Of a stretch of 64,000 nucleotides of DNA, positions 9,747 to 63,649 are shown one piece after another. The notes under the pieces were generated by a model, which was given only the letters and a program-made list of their open reading frames with translations, ran no database searches and was not told the DNA's origin. Made by a program: the position numbers and the translations under genes. The stretch covers positions 8,990,001 through 9,054,000 of the forward strand of contig OX597814.1 in the NCBI GenBank assembly GCA_951406725.2. The letters are read 5' to 3'. This DNA comes from Octopus vulgaris. Taxonomy: Eukaryota. How positions within the stretch are numbered: the stretch's first letter is position 1; each line of letters begins with the position of its first letter.

Positions 9747-9850
9747 CATATATATATATATGTATATATATGTATATATATATACATATATATATATGTA
9801 TATATAGATCAATAAATGGTGGGGTTGTGTTGACCGCACGTGGAGAAATG

Positions 9851-11033
9851 ATAAGTAAGGAAAAATTTTTTAAAAATGCAGAATGCTCAAATGAAAGAAA
9901 ATTTTAATAAAATGAGAAATTGATAAAATATATAAATATATGTTTATTCAACCGGTTTTCGTCATTGTATGACTTGTCAAGAATATTTATGTTTTAAAAG
10001 TTTTTTAAAAATTAGAAAGGGGAAAAAAGGGGAATTGCATTGTTTTTTGTAAAAGAATAATGATAAAAATGTACAAAAATTAAAAAATAAGTTCTCCGAT
10101 ACATTGCGAGTTCGTTGTGTATCTTGAGTTTTATGGTTGTTTACGATAAAATTACCTTGAGGTGTTAAGATCCAAAGGGATTAAGAGCATGTGTTGTGTT
10201 GTGTTGTTAAATTCAGCATGTTTGCAGGACAGGAAGTAGTAGTAATTGTGGTCCTGGTTCTTCAGTTCCTGTGTTGTGAGTAAGGGGAGACAACTCTTTT
10301 GAGTTCTTCAATAAAACCCAAATTATAAAACTATCATTTTAGCTTCATTTGCATTATCTTTTTTATATAATTGCTTGATAACTTAACTTTCAGATTTTAA
10401 CACTTTATTTATATTATTTTCTAATAATATAAATCTGCATAGACAATTGCATTTCAAATTCTCATATCATTTATAATAAAAATGATAGTAATAACAACAA
10501 TAGTAAAAATGATATTTAAAGAATATAAGTTTTAGCTTGAAGTGATGAATGCATGGTATCTTTATATATTTGTGTTAGTCCATCCATGAAGAGTGAGGTA
10601 GAGAAAGGAAGTTTGATCAACGAGGAGTTTGCATATTAAGTTGTGTTTGGAATTTTTCAATAAAGAGATTCTCCTTGTTAATTCTCTCCTGTGTGGTGAT
10701 CCCGTCTTTACATTGGTAGAAGGGGAATATATAGAATTTGGGGTTTAAGTCTTTAGCACATGAGTCTAAGTGGTCACTCAGTGGAATTTGTCGGTATTCC
10801 GGGAGATTTATTTGTTCTTTATGCACCGTTACTCGTTTACGTAACGGGAGACTCGTTTGTCCAACATAATTATGTTGGCAACCAGCGCATGTGAGAACGT
10901 AGATAAGGTTCTCGGAGGAACAGGAGAAGTTAGTCTTGATTTTAAACTTCGTACCTTGTTTGAAGGTAAATTCAGAGCCTTCAAGTAGAAAGGGGCAGGT
11001 ACCACAGTTTGAGCGTGCACATTTTTTTACTGT
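9851..11033 (-). repeat. Inverted copy of the PLE 3' end (GIY-YIG domain plus 3'UTR)
   Basis: Near-identical reverse complement of 13366-14550; ORF 10617..11120 repeats the C-terminus of ORF 11682..13781. Confidence 0.95.
9945..9985 (-). ncRNA. Variant minimal hammerhead-like motif (copy in inverted arm)
   Basis: Reverse complement of 14415-14455. Confidence 0.55.
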
Positions 11034-11681
11034 GCACCGATTAGAACCTTCAAGAACCTCCCATACACTAGAAATTATCCCCCCCTCAAGGCTCCCCTCC
11101 CTCACACTAATAACAAACAAGGCATCCTACCCACACCGATACATATAAGACCCACCCAACGAACCCCCTATAGTCCACCCATCCAACAACCACATTCCTA
11201 CCACATCTCCTACAGATCTCCAAACCCTCACATCCCACACGAACCCAATCACCACAACTACATACCCCCCTACATCCCCCCATACAATCTACCAGACACA
11301 CACCCACAAACCCATCGCATTTCTCACAAATCCTTACACCATCGCATCCCATACCAACACAAATACGACAACTACCTACCCCCTCCAACCTCCCCACCCA
11401 AAAACACTCCTACACATACAACCAGAACTTTAACAAAGAATACACCCCTTACCTCAACAACCATTTTTTAGACAGAGGGGAAAAATACAAACACCACCGC
11501 TAACACAGACCCAAAATAAGAAAACAAAAATTATAAACCTCTCCAGCAAAACACTGACACCAACCCAAATCAACATCCTAGCAAGAGGTTTGAAATTCAC
11601 ACCCACCCCAAGAACACCCAACCCCCGGAGGTCAAGGATGACGTTTCTGAATTCTGCAGAAAACTTCGCCTAACAGAAGCT

Positions 11682-13781
11682 TTGACAGATATCAACAATG
11701 GGGACGATTCATTGATCAGAAATAAAAGCAACTTCCTACCACCAAAAGGGAGAAATAAAACACTGGACGATTTCTGTAAACACATCCAGAGTCTCCCCTT
11801 TACCCCAAGCAAAACCAAGGTAAAATCCAATTTCAGTAAGGAAGAATGGGAAAACCTACGTGACATACAACTGGATAAAAACCTCACCATCAAAGAAGCG
11901 GACAAAGGGAGTGCTGTGGTCCTTATGGACACGGAATTTTATAAACACCTAGTGTTCTCCATGCTTAACAATAACATTTTCTATGAGGTTATTAACAACT
12001 ACAAACAGCAAAAAACAATCAGAAACCTCACCACACTCATACGCCAACACGGTCAGGGACTCACAGAAAAAGAAAGGGATTATATCACCATTTTCAAATG
12101 CAAGCCCAGCCTTTTTTATGGCCTTCCTAAAATCCATAAAAACAAATACATCACCGAAGCCTGCAAACTCTCCACTGACATCCACATCAACATCAAAGCA
12201 CCGGAGGACCTAAAACTAAGGCCCATCGTGGCTGGTACCTCCTGTGAAACACACCGCCTGAGTAACTTTCTAGACATCCTTTTGAAACCTTTCCTTACCC
12301 ACATCAAAAGTTTCATTAGGGATGATCTGGACATGCTCAAACACCTCCCGAAAACAGTTAACGAGGAGGCACTCCTGGTATCCTTTGATGTCATCAACCT
12401 CTACACCAACATTCCACATGAGTATGGTATAGAGGCAATTGACTTCTGGCTAGAAAAACACCCAGAGACATTCCCTGACCGCATTAACAAGTCTTTTATT
12501 ACAGAATCTCTTAAGTTCATTCTGACAAACAATTTTTTTCTCTTCGACGACACACACTACCGTCAAAAATGTGGCATTGCGATGGGTACCAAGGCTGCAC
12601 CAGTCCTTGCGAACCTCATAATGGGTTACTTCGAACTGTCACTCTATGAAATATCAAGCCAGAAATTTGGACATGTTTTCCACACCTACCTAATGGAAAA
12701 CTGGAAAAGGTATTTAGATGATTGTTTCATCATATGGAAAGAACCTTATGAAAAACTCCTGGAATTCAAAACCATACTAAACAACATACATCCCAACATC
12801 CAATTCACTATGGAATTAAGCAAACATCATCTCCCATTCCTTGATCTCCTAATTATAAAAACACCTAAGAACCAAATCATAACAGACATCTACCACAAAC
12901 TTACAGACTCACAACAATACCTCCTCTTTAGTTCATGCCACCCAAAACACACCAAGACAAATATCCCATTCAATTTAGCTAAAAGGGTATGCACCATTGT
13001 CTCGGATCCAAAAACACGAGAAATACGCCTTCAAGACCTCAAAAAAACACTATTACAACGTCAATATCCCTCCACCCTTATAGAGTATGGAATAAAACGC
13101 GCCAAAGAACTAGACAACACTACACTGAAAACCACCCAACCTAACACCACACACAACCTCAAAATACTTCCATACATTTCCACCCACAACCCCAAAAATA
13201 TCGAAGCATACACCACAATCATACAAAACCTCAGTCTACTGTCAACAGACCCAAAAATGAAAAACATTATAAATACACACAAAATCCTCAAATGCAAAAG
13301 GCAACACAAATCTTTAAAAAAACTCTTGACAAATGCCAAACTTCACACACCACATCCACCCCCAACAGTAAAAAAATGTGCACGCTCAAACTGTGGTACC
13401 TGCCCCTTTCTACTTGAAGGCTCTGAATTTACCTTCAAACAAGGTACGAAGTTTAAAATCAAGACTAACTTCTCCTGTTCCTCCGAGAACCTTATCTACG
13501 TTCTCACATGCGCTGGTTGCCAACATAATTATGTTGGACAAACGAGTCTCCCGTTACGTAAACGAGTAACGGTGCATAAAGAACAAATAAATCTCCCGGA
13601 ATACCGACAAATTCCACTGAGTGACCACTTAGACTCATGTGCTAAAGACTTAAACCCCAAATTCTATATATTCCCCTTCTACCAATGTAAAGACGGGATC
13701 ACCACACAGGAGAGAATTAACAAGGAGAATCTCTTTATTGAAAAATTCCAAACACAACTTAATATGCAAACTCCTCGTTGA
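11682..13781 (+). CDS. PLE reverse transcriptase / GIY-YIG endonuclease; the real N-terminus lies upstream across a frameshift near 11612-11616
   Basis: Motifs IKEADKGSAVV, FYGLPKIHK, LRPIV, SFDVINLYTNIP, GIAMGT, RYLDD, LPFLD, C-x4-C-x2-C, NLIYVLTC..YVGQT..LRKR..H; upstream frame reads IINLSSKTLT..ILARGLKFTPTP. Confidence 0.93.
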   Translation: MTDINNGDDSLIRNKSNFLPPKGRNKTLDDFCKHIQSLPFTPSKTKVKSNFSKEEWENLRDIQLDKNLTIKEADKGSAVVLMDTEFYKHLVFSMLNNNIFYEVINNYKQQKTIRNLTTLIRQHGQGLTEKERDYITIFKCKPSLFYGLPKIHKNKYITEACKLSTDIHINIKAPEDLKLRPIVAGTSCETHRLSNFLDILLKPFLTHIKSFIRDDLDMLKHLPKTVNEEALLVSFDVINLYTNIPHEYGIEAIDFWLEKHPETFPDRINKSFITESLKFILTNNFFLFDDTHYRQKCGIAMGTKAAPVLANLIMGYFELSLYEISSQKFGHVFHTYLMENWKRYLDDCFIIWKEPYEKLLEFKTILNNIHPNIQFTMELSKHHLPFLDLLIIKTPKNQIITDIYHKLTDSQQYLLFSSCHPKHTKTNIPFNLAKRVCTIVSDPKTREIRLQDLKKTLLQRQYPSTLIEYGIKRAKELDNTTLKTTQPNTTHNLKILPYISTHNPKNIEAYTTIIQNLSLLSTDPKMKNIINTHKILKCKRQHKSLKKLLTNAKLHTPHPPPTVKKCARSNCGTCPFLLEGSEFTFKQGTKFKIKTNFSCSSENLIYVLTCAGCQHNYVGQTSLPLRKRVTVHKEQINLPEYRQIPLSDHLDSCAKDLNPKFYIFPFYQCKDGITTQERINKENLFIEKFQTQLNMQTPR

Positions 13782-14414
13782 TCAAACTTCCTTTCTCTAC
13801 CTCACTCTTCATGGATGGACTAACACAAATATATAAAGATACCATGCATTCATCACTTCAAGCTAAAACTTATATTCTTTAAATATCATTTTTACTATTG
13901 TTGTTATTACTATCATTTTTATTATAAATGATATGAGAATTTGAAATGCAATTGTCTATGCAGATTTATATTATTAGAAAATAATATAAATAAAGTGTTA
14001 AAATCTGAAAGTTAAGTTATCAAGCAATTATATAAAAAAGATAATGCAAATGAAGCTAAAATGATAGTTTTATAATTTGGGTTTTATTGAAGAACTCAAA
14101 AGAGTTGTCTCCCCTTACTCACAACACAGGAACTGAAGAACCAGGACCACAATTACTACTACTTCCTGTCCTGCAAACATGCTGAATTTAACAACACAAC
14201 ACAACACATGCTCTTAATCCCTTTGGATCTTAACACCTCAAGGTAATTTTTTCGTAAACAACCATAAAACTCAAGATACACAACGAACTCGCAATATATC
14301 GGAGAACTTATTTTTTAATTTTTGTACATTTTTATCATTATTCTTTTACAAAAAACAATGCAATTCCCCTTTTTTCCCCTTTCTAATTTTTAAAAAAACT
14401 TCTTAAAACATAAA

Positions 14415-14455
14415 TATTCTTGACAAGTCATACAATGACGAAAACCGGTTGAATA
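14415..14455 (+). ncRNA. Variant minimal hammerhead-like motif in PLE 3'UTR
   Basis: tattc-TTGACAA-gtca-tacaa-tgac-GAAA-accggtt-gaata: stem I tattc/gaata, stem II gtca/tgac, palindromic stem III, non-canonical core. Confidence 0.55.
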
Positions 14456-14560
14456 AACATATATTTATATATTTTATCAATTTCTCATTTTATTAAAATT
14501 TTCTTTCATTTGAGCATTCTGCATTTTTAAAAAAATTTTTCCTTCCTTATGCATATATAT

Positions 14561-16487: not shown

Positions 16488-16605
16488 GAATCTCCGAAGA
16501 GGCCGTAAGATATTTTTGTTAATGTCTCATTTATACCTGCAATATATGGCTAATATAGGTTAAATGAGACATACTTATCTGCATGGCCGAAACAGCTGTC
16601 AGTTA
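16488..16605 (+). ncRNA. Hammerhead-like motif with long stem II (end of a non-coding PLE remnant at about 15230-16795)
   Basis: CCGAAGA-ggcc...ggcc-GAAAC-agct-GTC; internal 12-bp hairpin atgtctcattta/taaatgagacat; one core substitution versus CUGANGA and a weak stem I. Confidence 0.65.
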
Positions 16606-16949
16606 TAATGTATATGTATTTTTATATCTTTTTATATTTATTTAGTTATATCTCATTATAATGATTGTAATTATTGTACTGTATTAATGTCTAATCTTAA
16701 TGCTCTTGTGTAGTGTTTTAATAAAGTATGTGATTCGGTATTATCTGATAGTTGATGAATGATTTAGATATATTTCTCCATTTTCTTATTTTGTATATAT
16801 ATATGTGTATATATATATATATAATTAATTAATAAGGGTGAGAGAATTAGATACTAATTTAATAGTATATTTATTCAACACCAAGTGGCCTAGTGCTCCG
16901 AGAAACCTGGATTATTATAATATTTTATAACATATTATAATATTTTTAC

Positions 16950-17409
16950 AAAATAAATATAAGAGAGTGGTCACTATATTGCTCACTCTAGCACCAGTTA
17001 ATCCAAAAGGTTTCAACCACGAAAATACATGTTTCCCATGAAAGTCAGTACGATTGTTAGCTCACACGGACAGGGCAAATAAAAAATAACAAAAATACAG
17101 ATTATTTTGGGACAATTGTTTCGCTATTAATGAATTAAATGTAATTTTACTTACAAAAAAAATCCATTTGTAGCTCGTCAGCCAAAACTAGCTACAAATG
17201 GATTTTTTTTGTAAGTAAAATTACATTTAATTCATTAATAGCGAAACAATTGTCCCAAAATAATCTGTATTTTTGTTATTTTTTATTTGCCCTGTCCGTG
17301 TGAGCTAACAATCGTACTGACTTTCATGGGAAACATGTATTTTCGTGGTTGAAACCTTTTGGATTAACTGGTGCTAGAGTGAGCAATATAGTGACCACTC
17401 TCTTATATT

Positions 17410-17415
<6 letters not shown>
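16950..17415. repeat. Long palindrome, 225-bp arms with 16-nt spacer
   Basis: 16950-17174 is the reverse complement of 17191-17415; spacer tcgtcagccaaaacta. Confidence 0.95.
17105..17187 (-). ncRNA. Canonical type I hammerhead ribozyme motif
   Basis: Minus strand: ttttgg-CTGACGA-gcta-(44 nt)-tagc-GAAAC-aatt-GTC-ccaaaa; all core positions present; predicted cut between 17111 and 17110. Confidence 0.85.
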
Positions 17416-17467
<52 letters not shown>

Positions 17468-17564
17468 GTATGTATATATATATAACGTCAATCCAAACAT
17501 GAAAACACAGCAACGCGAGGATGTGGAACAAGTATAGTTCAGGAAAGGAAAGAAAGAAAGAGGA

Positions 17565-17598
17565 TTTAACGTTTCGAGCGGAGCTCTTCGTCAGAAAC
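17565..17598 (-). ncRNA. Minimal PLE-type hammerhead motif
   Basis: ttt-CTGACGA-a-gagc-tcc-gctc-GAAACGTT-aaa; palindromic AACGTT in place of stem III. Confidence 0.75.
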
Positions 17599-17949
17599 AG
17601 AAAGAGGAAAGGTCCAAGGAAGGGAAGATGGAGAAAGAAAATCGCTAATGATATACATGCGGTCACATATTGACTGACCAGAAGGGAATGGGTGAAGAAA
17701 AAGTTCTTTCAAAGACAGGAGAGTACAAGAGAAGGAGGTATGTGTGGGTATGTGCATGCGTGCAGATCTGTGTGTGTGTGTGTGAGTGTAATGATAGTGT
17801 GTGTGTGGCTGTGGCTGTGGCTTTTTATCTATGTGTGGTGGGCTTTGTATAGTTTAAGGTCATAAGAAGAATTTATAGTAGGTGTGGCTGCCTGTTGTGT
17901 GTCTACCTACACATGTGCTTAGGAGAATGGTCAGTGAAAGGTACTGGTA

Positions 17950-19110
17950 GTTAGAAGTATGTGTGTGTGCGTGTATGTATATGTAGTGTGTGTGTGTTTT
18001 GTTTGCAGTGTGTGTAGGTATGTATATGTGTGTATGAGTGTATGCGTAGGGGTTGTGTGTGGGGAGTAAATGTACTTTACTCTGTGTGTGTGTGTGCTTG
18101 TATGTGCGTTGTATACATGAATGTATAATTGTATGTGTGTATATATTAGTGTGTGCTCTGTGTGTATGGGAGGTATGTGTGGGTTCATTTGCGTGTGCGT
18201 GTGTGTATGTATGTGCATGTAGTTGTGTGTGCAGGTATGTGTGTGTGCATGTGTGGGTATGTAGGTGTATATACGTGTATGTGTGGGGTTGTGAGTGTTA
18301 GGTAAGTGTGCATTCATGTGCGTGTGTACATGCGTATGTGTGCACATGCTTGTGCATTCATGTGTGTGTGTCTGTGTCTATATGTGTATGCCTATGTGTA
18401 TGCGTCTGTGTGTGAATGCATATATTGTCAATGTATGTGTATGTGAATTTGTGGGTGTTTGGGGTTTGTGTAGGTGTAATGTGCGTACCTGTGTGTATGC
18501 ACGTGCGTGTGCTTGTATGCATGTGCTTACATGTATGTATGTGTATGTGCGTGTGTGTTTGTGCCCATGTGTGTATAATTGTGTGTATGTGTATTGTGTG
18601 TATGGACGTATATGTGCAAATCTGTGCTAGTGTGTGTGTGTGTACATACATGTGTATATGTGTGTGCGTGTGTGTATGTGCATGAGTGCATGTGTATATG
18701 TGCGTGCGTGTGTATATGTGTATGTGAACATGGAAATGTGTGTCGGGTTGTGTGCATTTTTTGTGTGTATGTGCGTGTGCTTGAGTATGTGGTTGTATGT
18801 GGTTGTGTGTACGTTTATATGTGTGTGTGTATAAAGGTATGTGTCTGTGTGTGCGTGGGGTTGTGTGGGATAAGTATCTGTGCATTCCTGTGCATGTGTA
18901 TGTGTGTGTGTACGTTTGTGCACATGTGTGTGTGTACGCGCATATGTGTGTGTGCACGTGGGTCTATGTGGGTGTGTGTGTATGTATGTGTGTGTGGAAG
19001 TATGTGTGTGTATATGTGCATGTATGTATGTTGTATGTGTGTGGTGTGTGGGAGGTATATGTGCATTCATGGATATGTACGTATGTGTATGTATGTGTGC
19101 GTGTATATAG
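17950..19110. repeat. Degenerate (TG)n/(TATG)n low-complexity tract
   Basis: Directly visible; source of many spurious H/T and C/V ORFs. Confidence 0.9.
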
Positions 19111-19674
19111 AAATAAAAACAATAATTTATAAAAATAATAAATTATAAACAACAAAAAACAAAAATTATAAAAACAATAAAATATAAAAAAGGTTGAAAG
19201 GAGATAAGGAAGTTAATGCAATGTAAAGGCACAATTACAAGTAAAAAAGAAGAATGAGAAAAGAAATTAAGTTGCTTGTTGCGGGAGGTGTAGAGGCAGT
19301 CACTAGGAGGAGGGGTTGTGTTTAGTCCGTGGGGGATAGTTGTCTTTAAATTAAAGATATGGTGCTGTTCCAAGCGGAGTCTTGAGTGTGGGGATCCGTG
19401 GTGTACAGCAAGGCCAAAGACAGAGATGTTAGAGGGGGAATGGTTGGTCAAGCAGAAGTGACGGGCGACGGGAGTGTTCAAACATAGCCGAACATCCCTT
19501 AAGTGTTTGGTGAACCGGTCAGCCAGTTGGTGGCCCGTCTGACCTACATAGAGTTTCCCACAGAGGTTGCATTTAATGTAGTATTTGAGGCTAGAAGAAG
19601 TACAAGAAAAGGAAATTCTAATGTGCACAGTTTGCTGGTTAGAACCTGTGATAGAAGACCGCTTTACCGGTCAC

Positions 19675-45040: not shown

Positions 45041-45083
45041 GATCTAAAAAGAAACATTAACTATAAAAAATGGTATTACTAAC

Positions 45084-46619
45084 CTTTCTGCACAATGGCT
45101 GCAGCAACCCCTCCCTTATAACTCAGTCTGCCATTTGCAGCATTAACAATAGCAGCTGTGTCCAGAGTCGTGATGTCACCTTCCCTCAACACTATTTCAC
45201 AGTTCTTATACACAAAATTAAGTATTTCTTCTGTTTCATTTCCTAAAGCTAGATTTAATGATATTATGCTCTCAGATTTCTTCTGCATTTCACACAAGAA
45301 ATTGTTTCCTTCTTCACTTTCCAGAAATTCTTGAAATCCAAACATTTCAAAGTTTACTTCTTTTGAACTGATATCTTTTCTTAAATTTTCTATAAATGTT
45401 TCCATTTTCCTAATTTGGTTTTGTGTTCCTTCCAGGTGTAACTTATTATCTTTGAGACACACATTCTTTATTTTATTTTTCTCACCAAAGTCATTGATTT
45501 CCTGTTCTATGAACTCTTTAAGAAAGAGGAAATGTTCAAGAGGCATCGATATATAAGATTCGTAAATTAAAGATTGCTCAAAGTCATCAATTTTGCTTTT
45601 TATATCATTAACTACAGCATCAACAGCAACAATAGAATTTTCACCAATAAAACAGAAATCTGGAAACTCTTCTTTTAGACTTTCAACAAATGTCAGCCAC
45701 TTTCCATGATTTGGAGTATCCTTAATTTTGTCCACAAAATCCAGTGTATTGGCAACAAAAGTTTCTTTCATGATTTCTTCCAGAAGTGAAAGATGTGTTT
45801 TATCACTTGCATAAAGTATTACTGAATCACCATCACCCGTTTCCCATGAACCAATACATTTCTTGTTTCTCAGTTTTTCATCAAGATATTCTTTCACTGA
45901 TTTTTTATTTATGATTATTCCAGTATTTAAAGGCAAACACAATTCAGATTTTACAATTGACCGAAGAATTTCATACATATTCTTTTGACAATTAGTTACT
46001 TCGGAATATTGGCCTTCAAAAATAACTTTGTTACTTTCTGCTGTAACTTTTAGACCTTCAAATTGTCCTTCTGCCTGCTCAAAAAATCCGAGACCAGATA
46101 GAATACGTCTTTCATGAATATTTAAATCATCCTCACATTCCATTCTAAGATTATCCAAAAGTCTTTTTTTCATTTTAATTACATTACTTTTATCAAATCC
46201 CAGAATATGAGCTTTATGATATCGGAAATCAAAATAAAAATACATATCATCATCTTCACTTTTAAATGTTCTAACAATGTCTTCAAAAATTTCATCTGGA
46301 ACATCAAGAGTTTCAACAGTAATGGAATTTAATAAATCTTTCAAACATTTTTCAATTTGCTCAGAATATTCTTCAGAATATTTTAATTTCAGTGTATTAA
46401 TCTTGGAATCTTCCCAAAGAACTTCAGCCAAAGTCTTTAATTGGTCATTAACTTCAGTTCTATGTTTCTTTAAAAAGGTCAGATGGAACTTGGAAGGTAG
46501 TAAATAGTCATGGACTTGATGTCTTGAAATGGTATTTTCTTCAGATGGTTTCCAGAATGGTTGAACATCTAACTTCACATTTTGCAGTCGATGTCGTCTT
46601 CTACAAACGTCCAGCACAA
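45084..46619 (-). CDS. PARP14: Large (1536 nt) exon of PARP14-like gene: RRM end, KH-like repeats, start of macrodomain
   Basis: Open 524-aa frame; polypyrimidine-ttttag acceptor at 46621-46620; donor g|gttagt at 45083; ends IVLREGDITTLDTAAIVNAANGRLSYKGGVAAAIVQKG. The symbol is a family-level inference from domain order. Confidence 0.88.
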
Positions 46620-46824
46620 CTAAAATTATGGAAAAGTAAAAAGATAAAATCATTTCATTGGTGAGGGATTAGGGGTGAGCTGGGGAGTTCAGTGGGTAAA
46701 GACAGAAAAGTATTTGAAGACAGTTATATGTTATTATTATAATACATTAGCAAAAACAAAAAAATATAATCAACATTTAACTGATACTAAGTAAACACTA
46801 TCTCTATTAATGATAATAAATACT

Positions 46825-48782
46825 AGAAACATCACAGGAATGGTTTCAAATTTTGGCACAAGGCCAGCGATTTCAGGAGGCTGGCTAAGTCAATTACATC
46901 AACCCCAGTGCTCAACTGGTACTTCTTTTATTGACCATAAACATCACTGGAATTTTGGTTTCAAATTTTGGCACAAGGCCAGCAATTTCAGGAGAGTGGC
47001 AAAGTCAATTACATCAACCCCAGTGCTCAACTGGTACTTATTTTATTGACCATAAACATCACTGGAATTTTGGTTTCAAATTTTGGCACAAGGCCAGCAA
47101 TTTCAGGAGTGTGGCTAAGTCAATTACATCAACCCCAGTGCTCAACTGGTACTTATTTTATTGACCATAAACATCACTGGAATGTTGGTTTCAAATTTTG
47201 GCACAAGGCCAGCAATTTCAGGAGAGTGGCAAGTCAATTACATCAACCCCAGTGCTCAACTGGTACTTATTTTATTGACCATAAACATCACTGGAATTTT
47301 GGTTTCAAATTTTGGCACAAGGCCAGCAATTTCAGGAGAGTGGCTAAGTCAATTACATCAACCCCAGTCCTCAACTGGCACTTATTTTATTGACCATAAA
47401 CATCACTGGAATTTTGGTTTCAAATTTTGGCACAAGGCCAGCAATTTCAGGAGAGTGGCTAAGTCAATTACATCAACCCCAGTCCTCAACTGGCACTTAT
47501 TTTATTGACCATAAACATCACTGGAATGTTGGTTTCAAATTTTGGCACAAGGCCAGCAATTTCAGGAGAGTGGCTAAGTCAATTACATCAACCCCAGTGC
47601 TCAACTGGTACTTATTTTATTGACCATAAACATCACTGGAATGTTGGTTTCAAATTTTGGCACAAGGCCAGCAATTTCAGGAGAGTGGCTAAGTCAATTA
47701 CATCAACCCCAGTGCTCAACTGGTACTTATTTTATTGACCATAAACATCACTGGAATTTTGGTTTCAAATTTTGGCACAAGGCTAGCAATTTCAGGAGAG
47801 TGGCTAAGTCAATTACATCAACCCCAGTGCTCAACTGGCACTTATTTTATTGACCATAAACATCACTGGAATTTTGGTTTCAAATTTTGGCACAAGGCTA
47901 GCAATTTCAGGAGAGTGTCTAAGTCAATTACATCAACCCCAGTCCTCAACTGGTACTTATTTTATTGACCATAAACATCACTGGAATTTTGGTTTCAAAT
48001 TTTGGCACAAGGCTAGCAATTTCAGGAGAGTGGCTAAGTCAATTACATCAACCCCAGTGATCAACTGGTACTTATTTTATTGACCATAAACATCACTGGA
48101 ATTTTGGTTTCAAATTTTGGCACAAGGCTAGCAATTTCAGGAGAGTGGCTAAGTCAATTACATCAACCCCAGTGCTCAACTGGTACTTATTTTATTGACC
48201 ATAAACATCACTGGAATGTTGGTTTCAAATTTTGGCACAAGGCCAGCAATTTCAGGAGAGTGGCTAAGTCAATTACATCAACCCCAGTGCTCAACTGGTA
48301 CTTATTTTATTGACCATAAACATCACTGGAATGTTGGTTTCAAATTTTGGCACAACGCCACCAACTTCTTGAGAGTGACGAAGTCAATTACATCAACCCC
48401 AGCGCTCAACTGGTACTTATTTCATTGACCATAAACATTGGTTTCAAATTTTGGCACAAGGCCAGCAATTTCAGGAGAGTGGCTAAGTCAATTACATCAA
48501 CCCCAGTGCTCAACTGGTACTTATTTTATTGACCATAAACATCACTGGAATGTTGGTTTCAAATTTTGGCACAAGGCCAGCAATTTCAGGAGAGTGTCTA
48601 AGTCAATTACATCAACCCCAGTGCTCAACTGGTACTTATTTTATTGACCATAAACATCATTGGAATTTTGGTTTCAAATTTTGGCACAAGGCCAGCAATT
48701 TCAGGAGAGTGGCAAAGTCAATTACATCAACCCCAGTACTTAACTGGTACTTATTTTGTTGACCATAAACATCACAGGAATA
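46825..48782. repeat. Tandem array of about 17 units of 115 bp, derived from a SINE 3' half
   Basis: Unit starts 46931, 47046, 47161 ... 48759; contains ttggcacaaggccagcaattt..caattacatcaaccccagtgctcaactggtacttattttattgacc, the reverse complement of the type B SINE tail. Confidence 0.92.
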
Positions 48783-60960: not shown

Positions 60961-60996
60961 GAGAATAATAGGAATGAAAAAAACTTACCTGGTTTT

Positions 60997-61138
60997 TAAC
61001 ATTATTTACATTTGACAGATATTTGTCCTCATCTTGTTTGTTGTTAACATAACGTTTCGGCTGATATACCCTCCAGCCTTCATCAGGTGTCTTGGGGAAA
61101 TTTCAAACCTGGGTTCTCATTCCTGAGGTGTTTTTCGA

Positions 61139-61171
<33 letters not shown>

Positions 61172-62003
61172 GAGTGTTCAGGTCACTGCTTGGAATCGAA
61201 CTTGGAATCTTGAGGTTAAACACTACACTCTTAAACACTATGCCATATGCCCATGGGCAATTATGGAGTGAATTTTAGGGCTTATAAATCTAATATTTTC
61301 CTTAATACCGGTTCCCATATGCTGCTCATATCTGCCCTTGGTCTGCTTCAGAGGTTGTTGTGTCCTAGCATATGTGCTGCTTCTTTTAGTTTTCATATTT
61401 TCCAGTGGCATTCTCTGTGTATTATTTTAGCTTCATCCCAAAGGGGGAGGTGGTCTCTATTTTTCCATACATAATCAACTATACCTGATTTATCAATATC
61501 TCCTCATGTCACAGCTTTGCGATGTTCGTCTACCCTTATTTTGAGGGAGTGGCATGTTTCATATTTGTATAACCTACCACAGCTACATGGGATGGAGTAC
61601 ACGCAGTCTTTGATCATATTCTCTTCTATTGGTGGTTTTACTCGAAGGAGATATTTGCAAAGTGTTGTATTACTCTTGAACACTGTCCTGATGTCATATG
61701 GGTCACACATCTTTTGTATCTTTCCGGAGAGGCTTTTCACATAGGGTAGACAAACTGTGGACAGTTTATCGGTTTCATCCTCTCTCTTCTTCATAATTGG
61801 AGTGGATAGTATATAGTTTTGGGGTAGTTGTTGCTTAACAGATTGTTATTGAGCTTGATCATTTCTTCGTGGAGTGTATCAGGATCACTACTTATATTCT
61901 TTGCACAATGTTTTAGGCACTGAGCAATCCCTTTCTTTACACTGTATGGATGGTGAGAATTGAAGTTGAGGTATCGTTCAGTAAAGGTCAGCTTGTGGTA
62001 TAC
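60997..62003 (-). mobile_element. PLE 3' fragment (left arm of inverted pair)
   Basis: ORF 61504..61794 CLPYVK..CVYSIPCSCGRLY..ET...L..RV.EH; homologous to 62165-63212. Confidence 0.88.
61046..61091 (-). ncRNA. Minimal PLE-type hammerhead motif
   Basis: acac-CTGATGA-a-ggctg-gagggtatat-cagcc-GAAACGTT-atgt. Confidence 0.75.
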
Positions 62004-62908
62004 ACATCTTTATACTCTGGCCCCACCAGGAATATGTCCAAGTGCTGTTAGATCATGTGAACTCAATAACGCCATCCATACAGTTCACAAGGGAAAACGA
62101 AAAAGACAATCAGCTAGCATTCCTGGACGCATTAATAACACACACCAAGTATGGATTCAGGACATCCGTATACCGCAAGCCGACCTTCACTGGACGATAC
62201 CTCAACTTCAATTCCCACCATCCATACAGTGTAAAGAGAAGGATTACTCAGTGCCTAAAACATTGTGCAAAGAATATAAGTAGCGATCATGATACACACC
62301 ACGAAGAAATGATCAAGCTCAATAACAATCTATTAAGCAACAACAACCCCAAAACATACTATCCACTCCAATTCTGAAGAAAAGAGAGGATGAAATCAAT
62401 AAACTGTCTGCAGTCTGTCTACCCTATGTGAAAAGCCTCTCCGAAAAGATACAAAAGATATGCAGCCCATATGATATCATAACAGTATTCAAGAGTAATA
62501 CAACACTTCTCAAAACCACCAATAGAAGAGAATATGACTAAGAATTGTGTGTACTCCATCCCATGCAACTGTAGTAGGTTATACAAAGGCGAAACATGCC
62601 GCCCCCTCAAAATAAGGGTTGAGGAACATCGCAAAGCTGTGACATGAGGAGATATTGATAAATCGGGTATAGCTGATCATGTATGGAAACATGGAAACCA
62701 CCGCCCCCTGTGGGATGAAGCTAAAATAATAGACAGAGAATGCGACTGGAAAATATGAAAACTAAAAGAAGCAGCACATATGCTAGGACACAACAACCTC
62801 CTAAGCAGACCAAGTGCAGATATGAGCAGCATATGGGAACCGGCATTAAAGAAGGATAGGGAAATATTAGATTTATAAGCCCTAAAATTCACTCCATAAT
62901 TGCCCCAG

Positions 62909-62981
62909 GGCATATGGTGTAGTGGTTAAGAGCGTGGGCTATTAACCCCAAGATTCCGAGTTCGATTCCAAGCAGTGACCT
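62909..62981 (+). other. tRNA-like cassette (Pol III A/B boxes) inside the PLE 3'UTR; decayed mirror copy at 61180-61252
   Basis: tggtgtagtggttaagagcg (A box/D arm), ggg-ctattaa-ccc anticodon-like arm, gagttcgattcc (B box); acceptor stem does not pair. Confidence 0.7.
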
Positions 62982-63119
62982 GAACACCACCACCACCACT
63001 ACTATTATTATTACTACTACTAATAATAATAATGATAATAATAATATCAACAATAATAATAATAATAATATAGAAAAAATACCTTAGGAATGAGAACCCA
63101 GTTTTAAAATTTCCGCAAG

Positions 63120-63162
63120 ACACCTGAAGAAGGCTGGAGGGTATATCAGCCGAAACGTGTTA
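63120..63162 (+). ncRNA. Minimal PLE-type hammerhead motif with a 3-nt deletion near the cut site
   Basis: acac-CTGAAGA-a-ggctg-gagggtatat-cagcc-GAAACG-tgtt. Confidence 0.6.
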
Positions 63163-63649
63163 ACAAGAAACAAGATGAGGACAAATATCCGTTGAATGTA
63201 AATAATTTAAATAATGTACAGAATTCCTCATCTCTTAAATATAGGGCAGGTTGTCTCCCCCTATCCTCACCCCAATGGATTGGGTTGTTTGCTCCAGCAA
63301 ATTACCAAATATTCTCTTGGTGATAATTCTTTGAAAACTTCCTGTGGAAATAGGGTTTTTAGCTGTTTGTTGTTTGAACGATATGCATGTGTGTAGGTAG
63401 GGAGATTGTGGGTGTAACAAAATGTTCTTCTGTTATGTTGGTATGTAATTCATGAGACCTGCATTTTTGAGTTAATTGCTATCTACTTTGTAATGGTGCT
63501 GTCTTTACTTTGTAATTGCTGCTGCTGCAACTCCTGCTGTTGTTGTTGTGTGTGGTGTTGTTGATTGAGGATGTCCTCTCAACTTGCCCCAAACCAATAT
63601 GAGTTGTGGTGACATGATGAGGTTACAAAAGTGCTGCATTGGAAAGTGT

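Follow-up and report, generated by a model that had tools for sequence, protein, structure and literature searches.

Metazoan non-LTR retrozymes are dispersed tandem repeats with a low GC content and no long open reading frame (ORF), in which each unit carries one type I hammerhead ribozyme with a 2-bp helix III and a palindromic tetraloop (PMC7229834; 10.64898/2026.07.22.740005). Insertions of EN+ Penelope-like elements (PLEs), in turn, are characterized by a head-to-head inverted, 5'-truncated copy, a tail at one end only, partial tandems, microsatellite targets, and a hammerhead, which in PLEs is located within the terminal repeat (PMC3846280, PMC8557442). How PLEs form inverted and tailed insertions was stated as an open question in PMC8557442, and self-priming has been proposed for inverted Penelope junctions in PMC3846280. 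The biochemical system closest to these insertions is PAc (Anolis Poseidon), a protein that cuts and extends both strands of an AT-rich target, with synthesis initiating at two internal positions in the RNA, one on either side of the tail (PMC11167929). According to the same source, unprocessed RNA that is largely uncleaved by the ribozyme is the main template, ribozyme mutants still insert, and the start site shows no difference between the top strand and the bottom strand, a result based on bulk data and not on the pairing within individual molecules; the two starts are not tied there to the two arms of inverted insertions.

The insertion described here is located in a 64-kb stretch of DNA that was analyzed at its full length (the window). 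It can be compared with these systems as follows. (i) It shares with metazoan non-LTR retrozymes the dispersed tandem repeats with one type I hammerhead per unit, the low GC content, the lack of a long ORF, and the 2-bp helix III with a palindromic tetraloop. In contrast, its unit measures 536 bp, compared to the 150- to 450-bp repeats quoted in PMC7229834, and its stem II comprises some 52 nt. Neither of the two retrozyme main texts describes inverted arms or a pair of fixed ends; the word "inverted" does not occur in the main text of PMC7229834 and occurs once, in a reference title, in that of 10.64898/2026.07.22.740005. (ii) The head-to-head inverted copy, the one-sided tail, the partial tandems, the microsatellite target, and the hammerhead are shared with EN+ PLE insertions (PMC3846280, PMC8557442), which differ in that the present repeat has no ORF and a tail of 130 nt instead of 30 to 40 nt. 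(iii) As with PAc, there would be two internal starts that bracket the tail, both target strands would be extended, the target is AT rich, and the template would be largely uncleaved by the ribozyme; unlike in PAc, the proposed start sites are AU rich and 130 nt apart (PMC11167929).

The two arms of the insertion (16950-17175 and 17190-17415) pair over 226 bp with no mismatch, leaving an unpaired core of 14 nt (17176-17189). This is the palindrome with 225-bp arms and a 16-nt spacer that was reported in the preliminary description, where the 1-nt overlap 17175/17190 had been counted as spacer. That account of the palindrome was accurate, and its boundaries have to be revised, since the element is 130 bp longer (16820-16949). 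The whole insertion corresponds to 16820-17415, with a (TA)n tract abutting each end. When nt 1 of the 536-bp unit is set to window position 17190, the insertion consists of monomer nt 1-371 on the minus strand (17190->16820), head to head with nt 16-241 on the plus strand (17190->17415), and each arm holds less than one monomer unit. The features are as follows.

16792..16819, no strand: (TA)n-type target tract, left
16820..17190, minus strand: long arm, nt 1-371, in hammerhead sense; its outer 3' end is the fixed end nt 371; 100% identical to a natural monomer of tandem array L016
16820..16949, minus strand: 130-nt one-sided extension ("tail"), nt 242-371, between both fixed ends
17105..17187, minus strand: type I hammerhead, with stem I (17187-17182/17110-17105), CTGACGA (17181-17175), stem II (17174-17123), GAAA (17122-17119), stem III with CAATTG, and the predicted cut 17111/17110
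17176..17189, no strand: unpaired centre; inversion junction at 17190, 1 nt common to both arms
17190..17415, plus strand: short inverted arm, nt 16-241; its outer 3' end lies at nt 241, the second fixed end of the family
17416..17484, no strand: (TA)n target tract, right

The complete minus-strand hammerhead that had been reported at 17105-17187 is the sole match found when both strands of the window were searched with the complete type I descriptor. Its elements follow in the order TTTTGG-CTGACGA-stem II-GAAA-CAATTG-TC-CCAAAA, where TTTTGG and CCAAAA form stem I, and stem III consists of 2 bp with the palindromic CAATTG, followed by GTC and the predicted cut after 17111. It combines the CUGANGA, GAAA, and UH core with three stems, as is typical of type I. 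The second arm was correctly said to hold a partial ribozyme: it starts at nt 16 and is devoid of CTGACG and of the 5' strand of stem I. A comparison with Rfam gave no hits at the gathering threshold, and none of 34 weak hits was to a hammerhead family; sub-threshold hits to microRNA (miRNA) families were rejected, as they reflect only the perfect hairpin. Over 135 loci, the columns of the catalytic core are nearly invariant, with N7 taking all four bases, and two-sided changes were observed at three stem I pairs and one stem II pair (11 variants, which represent few independent events). In the folding ensemble, the pair probability of helix III was 0.0 for the monomer, even in its native tandem context, and hammerhead motifs of such a kind have been reported to need dimers (PMC4209133). 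The ribozyme is likely to act in the source RNA, where it would process multimers, and not in making the inversion. The ORF scan detected no ORF of at least 120 amino acids overlapping the element; of seven long ORFs scanned, four contain retroelement domains and three had no match, and no host gene was established at the locus. The locus is one ordinary recent copy of a known kind of element, namely, of the non-LTR retrozyme type.

When the arm was searched against its own genome (2.8 Gb), at least 40 full-length matches of 100% identity were retrieved from many contigs, many of them at a 536-bp spacing. The arm belongs to a tandem unit of 536 bp, arrays of which reach 12 or more units, and 2,146 exact matches to the hammerhead pattern are present in the genome. 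The family shows (i) tandem repeats whose units each carry a type I hammerhead, (ii) no protein-coding capacity, the loci checked having no PLE ORF directly joined to the repeat, and (iii) dispersed and recently mobile copies, as seen in the at least 40 perfect copies and in 811 plus 302 end junctions. A divergent hammerhead motif that was considered a candidate for the autonomous partner turned out to represent a second noncoding subfamily, about 75% identical, in which the core is kept and stem I has changed compensatorily. A tblastn search of the fetched loci with the PLE protein of the window retrieved only separate PLE fragments nearby, none of them contiguous with the repeat, and no sequence link of a reverse transcriptase (RT) and GIY-YIG domain to the repeat was found among the loci checked (the best 40 candidates per search). 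Since no autonomous partner was found, we infer the involvement of a Penelope-type enzyme. Among open-access main texts, we found no paper that deals with the 536-bp family or with the paired use of ends in retrozymes.

Two further observations concern individual copies. At three places on the contig of the window (C1), the loci L035, L090, and L092 share an identical junction and flank and are one older insertion, indicating duplication after insertion. Among the variants of loci L031 to L244, read on the RNA-sense strand, 31 of 66 inherited ones are A/G and 10 of 66 are C/T, compared to 47/175 and 45/175 for variants confined to a single locus. Polarization with the divergent subfamily resulted in 12 A>G, 4 T>C, 7 G>A, and 5 C>T changes, and 18 were ambiguous. 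This skew in sequence variants may hint at A-to-I editing carried through retrotransposition or at selection for G-U pairs.

To define the outer ends, exact junctions between an end and (TA)n were retrieved genome-wide (811 at nt 371 and 302 at nt 241), and the first 100 of each were sampled. A number of results emerged from these data. (i) Inverted insertions account for 68 of the 100 nt-371 insertions and 75 of the 100 nt-241 insertions. The remaining 32 and 25, respectively, have a single arm; in some of them, a very short stretch of the second arm is left. (ii) Among the 63 independent inverted insertions of the nt-371 set, the other end was at nt 225 to 244 in 57, at nt 185, 211, and 259 in three, off the stretch in three, and at nt 371 in none. 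Conversely, the 75 inverted insertions of the nt-241 set had their other end at nt 365 to 376 (68 cases), 332 to 358 (5 cases), or 216 (1 case, L181, which is the one possible 241/241 pair) or ran off the stretch (1 case). (iii) The same two ends recur in the subfamily of about 75% identity. Inversion is the norm of the family, with one arm nearly always ending near nt 241 and the other near nt 371. An inverted, 5'-truncated copy with a one-sided tail, i.e., the architecture described for PLEs (PMC8557442, PMC3846280), is present in the inverted insertions, and capture-recapture gives an estimate of roughly 900 to 1,300 inverted insertions of the 536-bp family genome-wide. As a separate observation, a similar pyrimidine-rich CTTAT motif precedes both fixed ends (ACTCTCTTAT at nt ~222-241, window 16950-16969, and CACCCTTAT at nt ~348-371, window 16820-16843); it is kept in the 75%-identical subfamily and is a candidate start signal for the enzyme.

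The inner junctions of both samples were pooled into 123 distinct junctions, and 119 insertions could be sized, the four that run off the stretch being left out of the length tests. Dropped before counting were L090 and L092 as duplicates of L035; L047, L128, L076, and L203, with complex or internal-palindrome alignments; L181; and 13 junctions common to both samples. Of the 119 sized insertions, 50 have arms of which neither includes the other, and 15 have arms with no common sequence; simple fold-back cannot make the insertions with non-nested arms. The inner ends lie within 30 nt of each other in 39/123 cases, compared to 14.3 expected by permutation; the present locus, with inner ends at nt 16 and nt 1 and a 1-nt overlap, is such a near-symmetric case. 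In the 80 insertions with at least 50 overlapping columns, the two arms differ at 47 of 13,320 positions (0.35%) and at 5 of 741 diagnostic columns. Different insertions, in comparison, show 3.6% mismatch, and 39% at diagnostic columns; 13 rare variants are present on both arms. This sharing of alleles fits fold-back, sister transcripts of one source locus, and gene conversion equally well. As for the joins, 61 of the 123 have a microhomology of 1 to 7 nt, 21 are blunt, 26 contain inserts of 1 to 5 nt, and 14 contain longer inserts, several of which copy adjacent sequence. Long inserts that repeat adjacent sequence resemble products of polymerase theta end joining. In L1 twin priming, two target-primed cDNAs, which copy non-overlapping segments, are joined with microhomology to form an inversion; in contrast, the arms of the present family usually overlap, and their inner ends show no clustering at the site of the other primer.

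We consider it probable (at about 0.6) that the arms were made by a Penelope-type RT-endonuclease that used a single RNA as template and the two strands of a cleaved (TA)n tract as primers. In this reaction, the enzyme would cut (TA)n and prime both target strands, with starts at the two fixed internal sites, nt 241 and nt 371, of one RNA molecule. Both target 3' ends would be extended toward the RNA 5' end, with a multimer or a circle serving as template, the polymerase that trails would displace the leading cDNA, both cDNAs would often halt at the same template break, and the two cDNA ends would subsequently be joined by end-joining repair. At 17190, both cDNAs would have halted no more than 15 nt apart, just past the hammerhead, so that the catalytic core was kept in one arm only. 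Weighing against this reading are the single-arm insertions, the possible 241/241 pair (L181), the lack of a strand difference in start site in the bulk data of PMC11167929, and the missing autonomous partner. More generally, and with odds that we place slightly below even, Penelope-type integration may be a two-primer reaction on a single RNA in which one enzyme complex has to use each start once, one per target strand, and the cDNAs tend to run up to a common break in the template, a multimer or a circle.

The importance of these data lies in the statistics of the family and not in the locus, and they constitute a useful test of Penelope integration models, for which the 536-bp family offers a clean description of inverted integration. 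The pairing of ends 241 and 371, the sharing of alleles, the non-nested arms, and the shared stop are quantitative predictions for the in vitro system of PMC11167929. If true, two-primer synthesis on one RNA would account jointly for the tail, for the presence of an inverted arm, and for junction palindromes that are nearly symmetric, and it would replace the published self-priming idea, and the 536-nt RNA would be a minimal substrate for its proof.

In a general form of self-priming, which we regard as unlikely though worth serious consideration, the cDNA folds back anywhere and copies itself, the second end is set by the endonuclease at the other fixed site, and deletions at the centre produce non-nested arms. 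The alleles common to both arms are in line with this proposal, as is the excess of near-symmetric junctions, several of which are at short palindromic words (AGCT, ACATGT), and the capacity of centre deletions after fold-back to yield non-nested arms counts against the preferred two-primer reading. However, the 50 non-nested insertions and the 15 with disjoint arms include some that are 100% identical to the monomer (L056, L075), and blunt joins with zero spacer occur (L109). Moreover, fold-back predicts a same-unit offset of one sign, whereas the offset observed is symmetric about zero (15/12/10), the near-symmetric cases comprising 15 with the impossible and 10 with the possible sign. The geometry of the family hence argues against the self-priming offered in PMC3846280.

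Twin priming could also have taken place on two separate RNAs in an enzyme dimer, both derived from the same source locus. The PAc protein is a predicted dimer (PMC11167929), the lengths of the arms correlate (Spearman 0.40), and there is a weak excess of equal lengths (6 of 40 long pairs versus 2.3 expected; P = 0.02). Although several subfamilies coexist, the two arms show no diagnostic mismatch in 75 of 80 insertions and a single one in each of the other five; in addition, two RNAs leave the shared stopping position without explanation. We therefore judge this alternative to be improbable, and the two-primer reaction on one RNA remains our preferred reading.

The preliminary description proposed that the hammerhead structure triggered template switching or self-priming at stem II and that the hairpin acts as a ribozyme switch. 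It placed the fold-back at the start of stem II, in tagcta; the position is right, and the word itself was created by the junction, the native monomer reading GAGCTA. A snap-back at this junction would involve 3/4 bp with a mismatch beside the 3' end and is not predicted by DNA folding. Three loci genome-wide turn here, and L102 turns at nt 536/1. Nevertheless, the mapping of breakpoints in sister copies, which had been suggested as a check, showed inner ends spread across the whole monomer, an outcome that the description itself had named as refuting: both inner ends fall into the 5' part of the hammerhead (nt 527-30) in only 3 of 123 junctions, this locus included, and arm ends at nt 1 to 21 number 6, compared to 10.2 calculated from the flanking density (P = 0.93), so that there is no enrichment at the start of stem II. 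Likewise, the three loci found genome-wide with the pattern in which both arms reach the start of stem II within 30 nt, including this one, compare with about 3 to 6 expected, as calculated by hand from a per-position rate of 0.67 to 1.13 per 123, 900 to 1,300 insertions, and the 73 of 135 loci that have the allele of the pattern. An apparent hot spot at nt 1, suggested by BLAST splitting, was gone after exact junction mapping. The predicted cut site is passed by 75/119 short-site arms and 65/119 long-site arms, i.e., by more than half, which is in line with an unprocessed main template (PMC11167929). Because sister copies turn at many other positions, the ribozyme is most likely at the tip of the palindrome by chance. 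The preliminary description was right in recognizing a retro-insertion of Penelope type that has an inverted arm and a conserved hammerhead; a causative role of the ribozyme is very unlikely.

The switch fares no better. The minus-strand transcript is predicted to form a 226-bp duplex of -409 kcal/mol, compared to -10 kcal/mol for the hammerhead fold and -19 kcal/mol for the local optimum, and the two states are hence far from the comparable stability that a switch demands; the duplex is predicted to inactivate the ribozyme rather than to switch it. In this transcript, the antisense arm is made first, and the plus-strand transcript contains no hammerhead core, so that neither strand is predicted to cleave. 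It is plausible that the RNA would serve as a double-stranded RNA (dsRNA) substrate, as would any such hairpin if transcribed. Among the runs listed with the sequence, none is on record as RNA, and several may be RNA.

Some data relate to the cut site itself. Arm ends at nt 77 to 85 were slightly overrepresented (11 versus 4.6; P = 0.014, one of 12 tests), which hints that cleaved RNA may sometimes be the template. A hot spot at the cut site was not established; a genome-wide search for a clean run-off at nt 81 gave only four matches, two of them real; the four consist of two one-base deletions, one run-off into (TA)n, and one jump skipping the hammerhead. The jump is found in L313 (1235-1665), where the cDNA passed from nt 81, the predicted cut, to about nt 13 with deletion of the hammerhead, and L314 ends exactly at nt 81.

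We give next to no credence to a library or assembly fold-back artefact: the exact junction is bridged by none of the contigs listed from four independent runs and no piece spans the stretch, gaps that are uninformative for a young and probably polymorphic insertion, but each arm ends at a family-specific site of its own, next to a different, unrelated flank, whereas a read fold-back would mirror the flank as well, contigs from independent runs carry joints matching other inversion junctions (individually weak, with sides of less than 30 letters), and older, diverged copies show the same architecture.

The window contains several other repeats. At 46827-48781 and 45079-46668, 17 copies of a 115-bp unit with a 95% match are found beside a 529-codon open frame without a Pfam match. 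A young PLE is located at 9806-14550, with a 753-amino-acid RT frame (11520-13781; Pfam RVT_1) and a GIY-YIG-like end. Its 3' part is repeated in inverted orientation over 1,033 nt without a mismatch, and both ends of the element are in (TA)n; the inverted arm extends about 50 nt beyond the direct arm, corresponding to the same kind of one-sided tail. Its 3' region contains a hammerhead-like CTGAAGA near 14134, with CAAA in place of the expected GAAA. An older inverted PLE remnant at ~60990-63240 has a minimal hammerhead in each arm (61086 on the minus strand and 63124 on the plus strand), and its right arm appears to be about 35 nt longer at the outer end. The left flank of the insertion contains, near plus-strand position 16494, a degenerate hammerhead. 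The minus strand of 17485-19670 holds the 3' remnant of another PLE, with a GIY-YIG-like frame (19143-19670) and a minimal hammerhead at 17594, which ends at the right (TA)n tract (17416-17484); this (TA)n tract beside the insertion appears to be a landing site that PLEs have used repeatedly.
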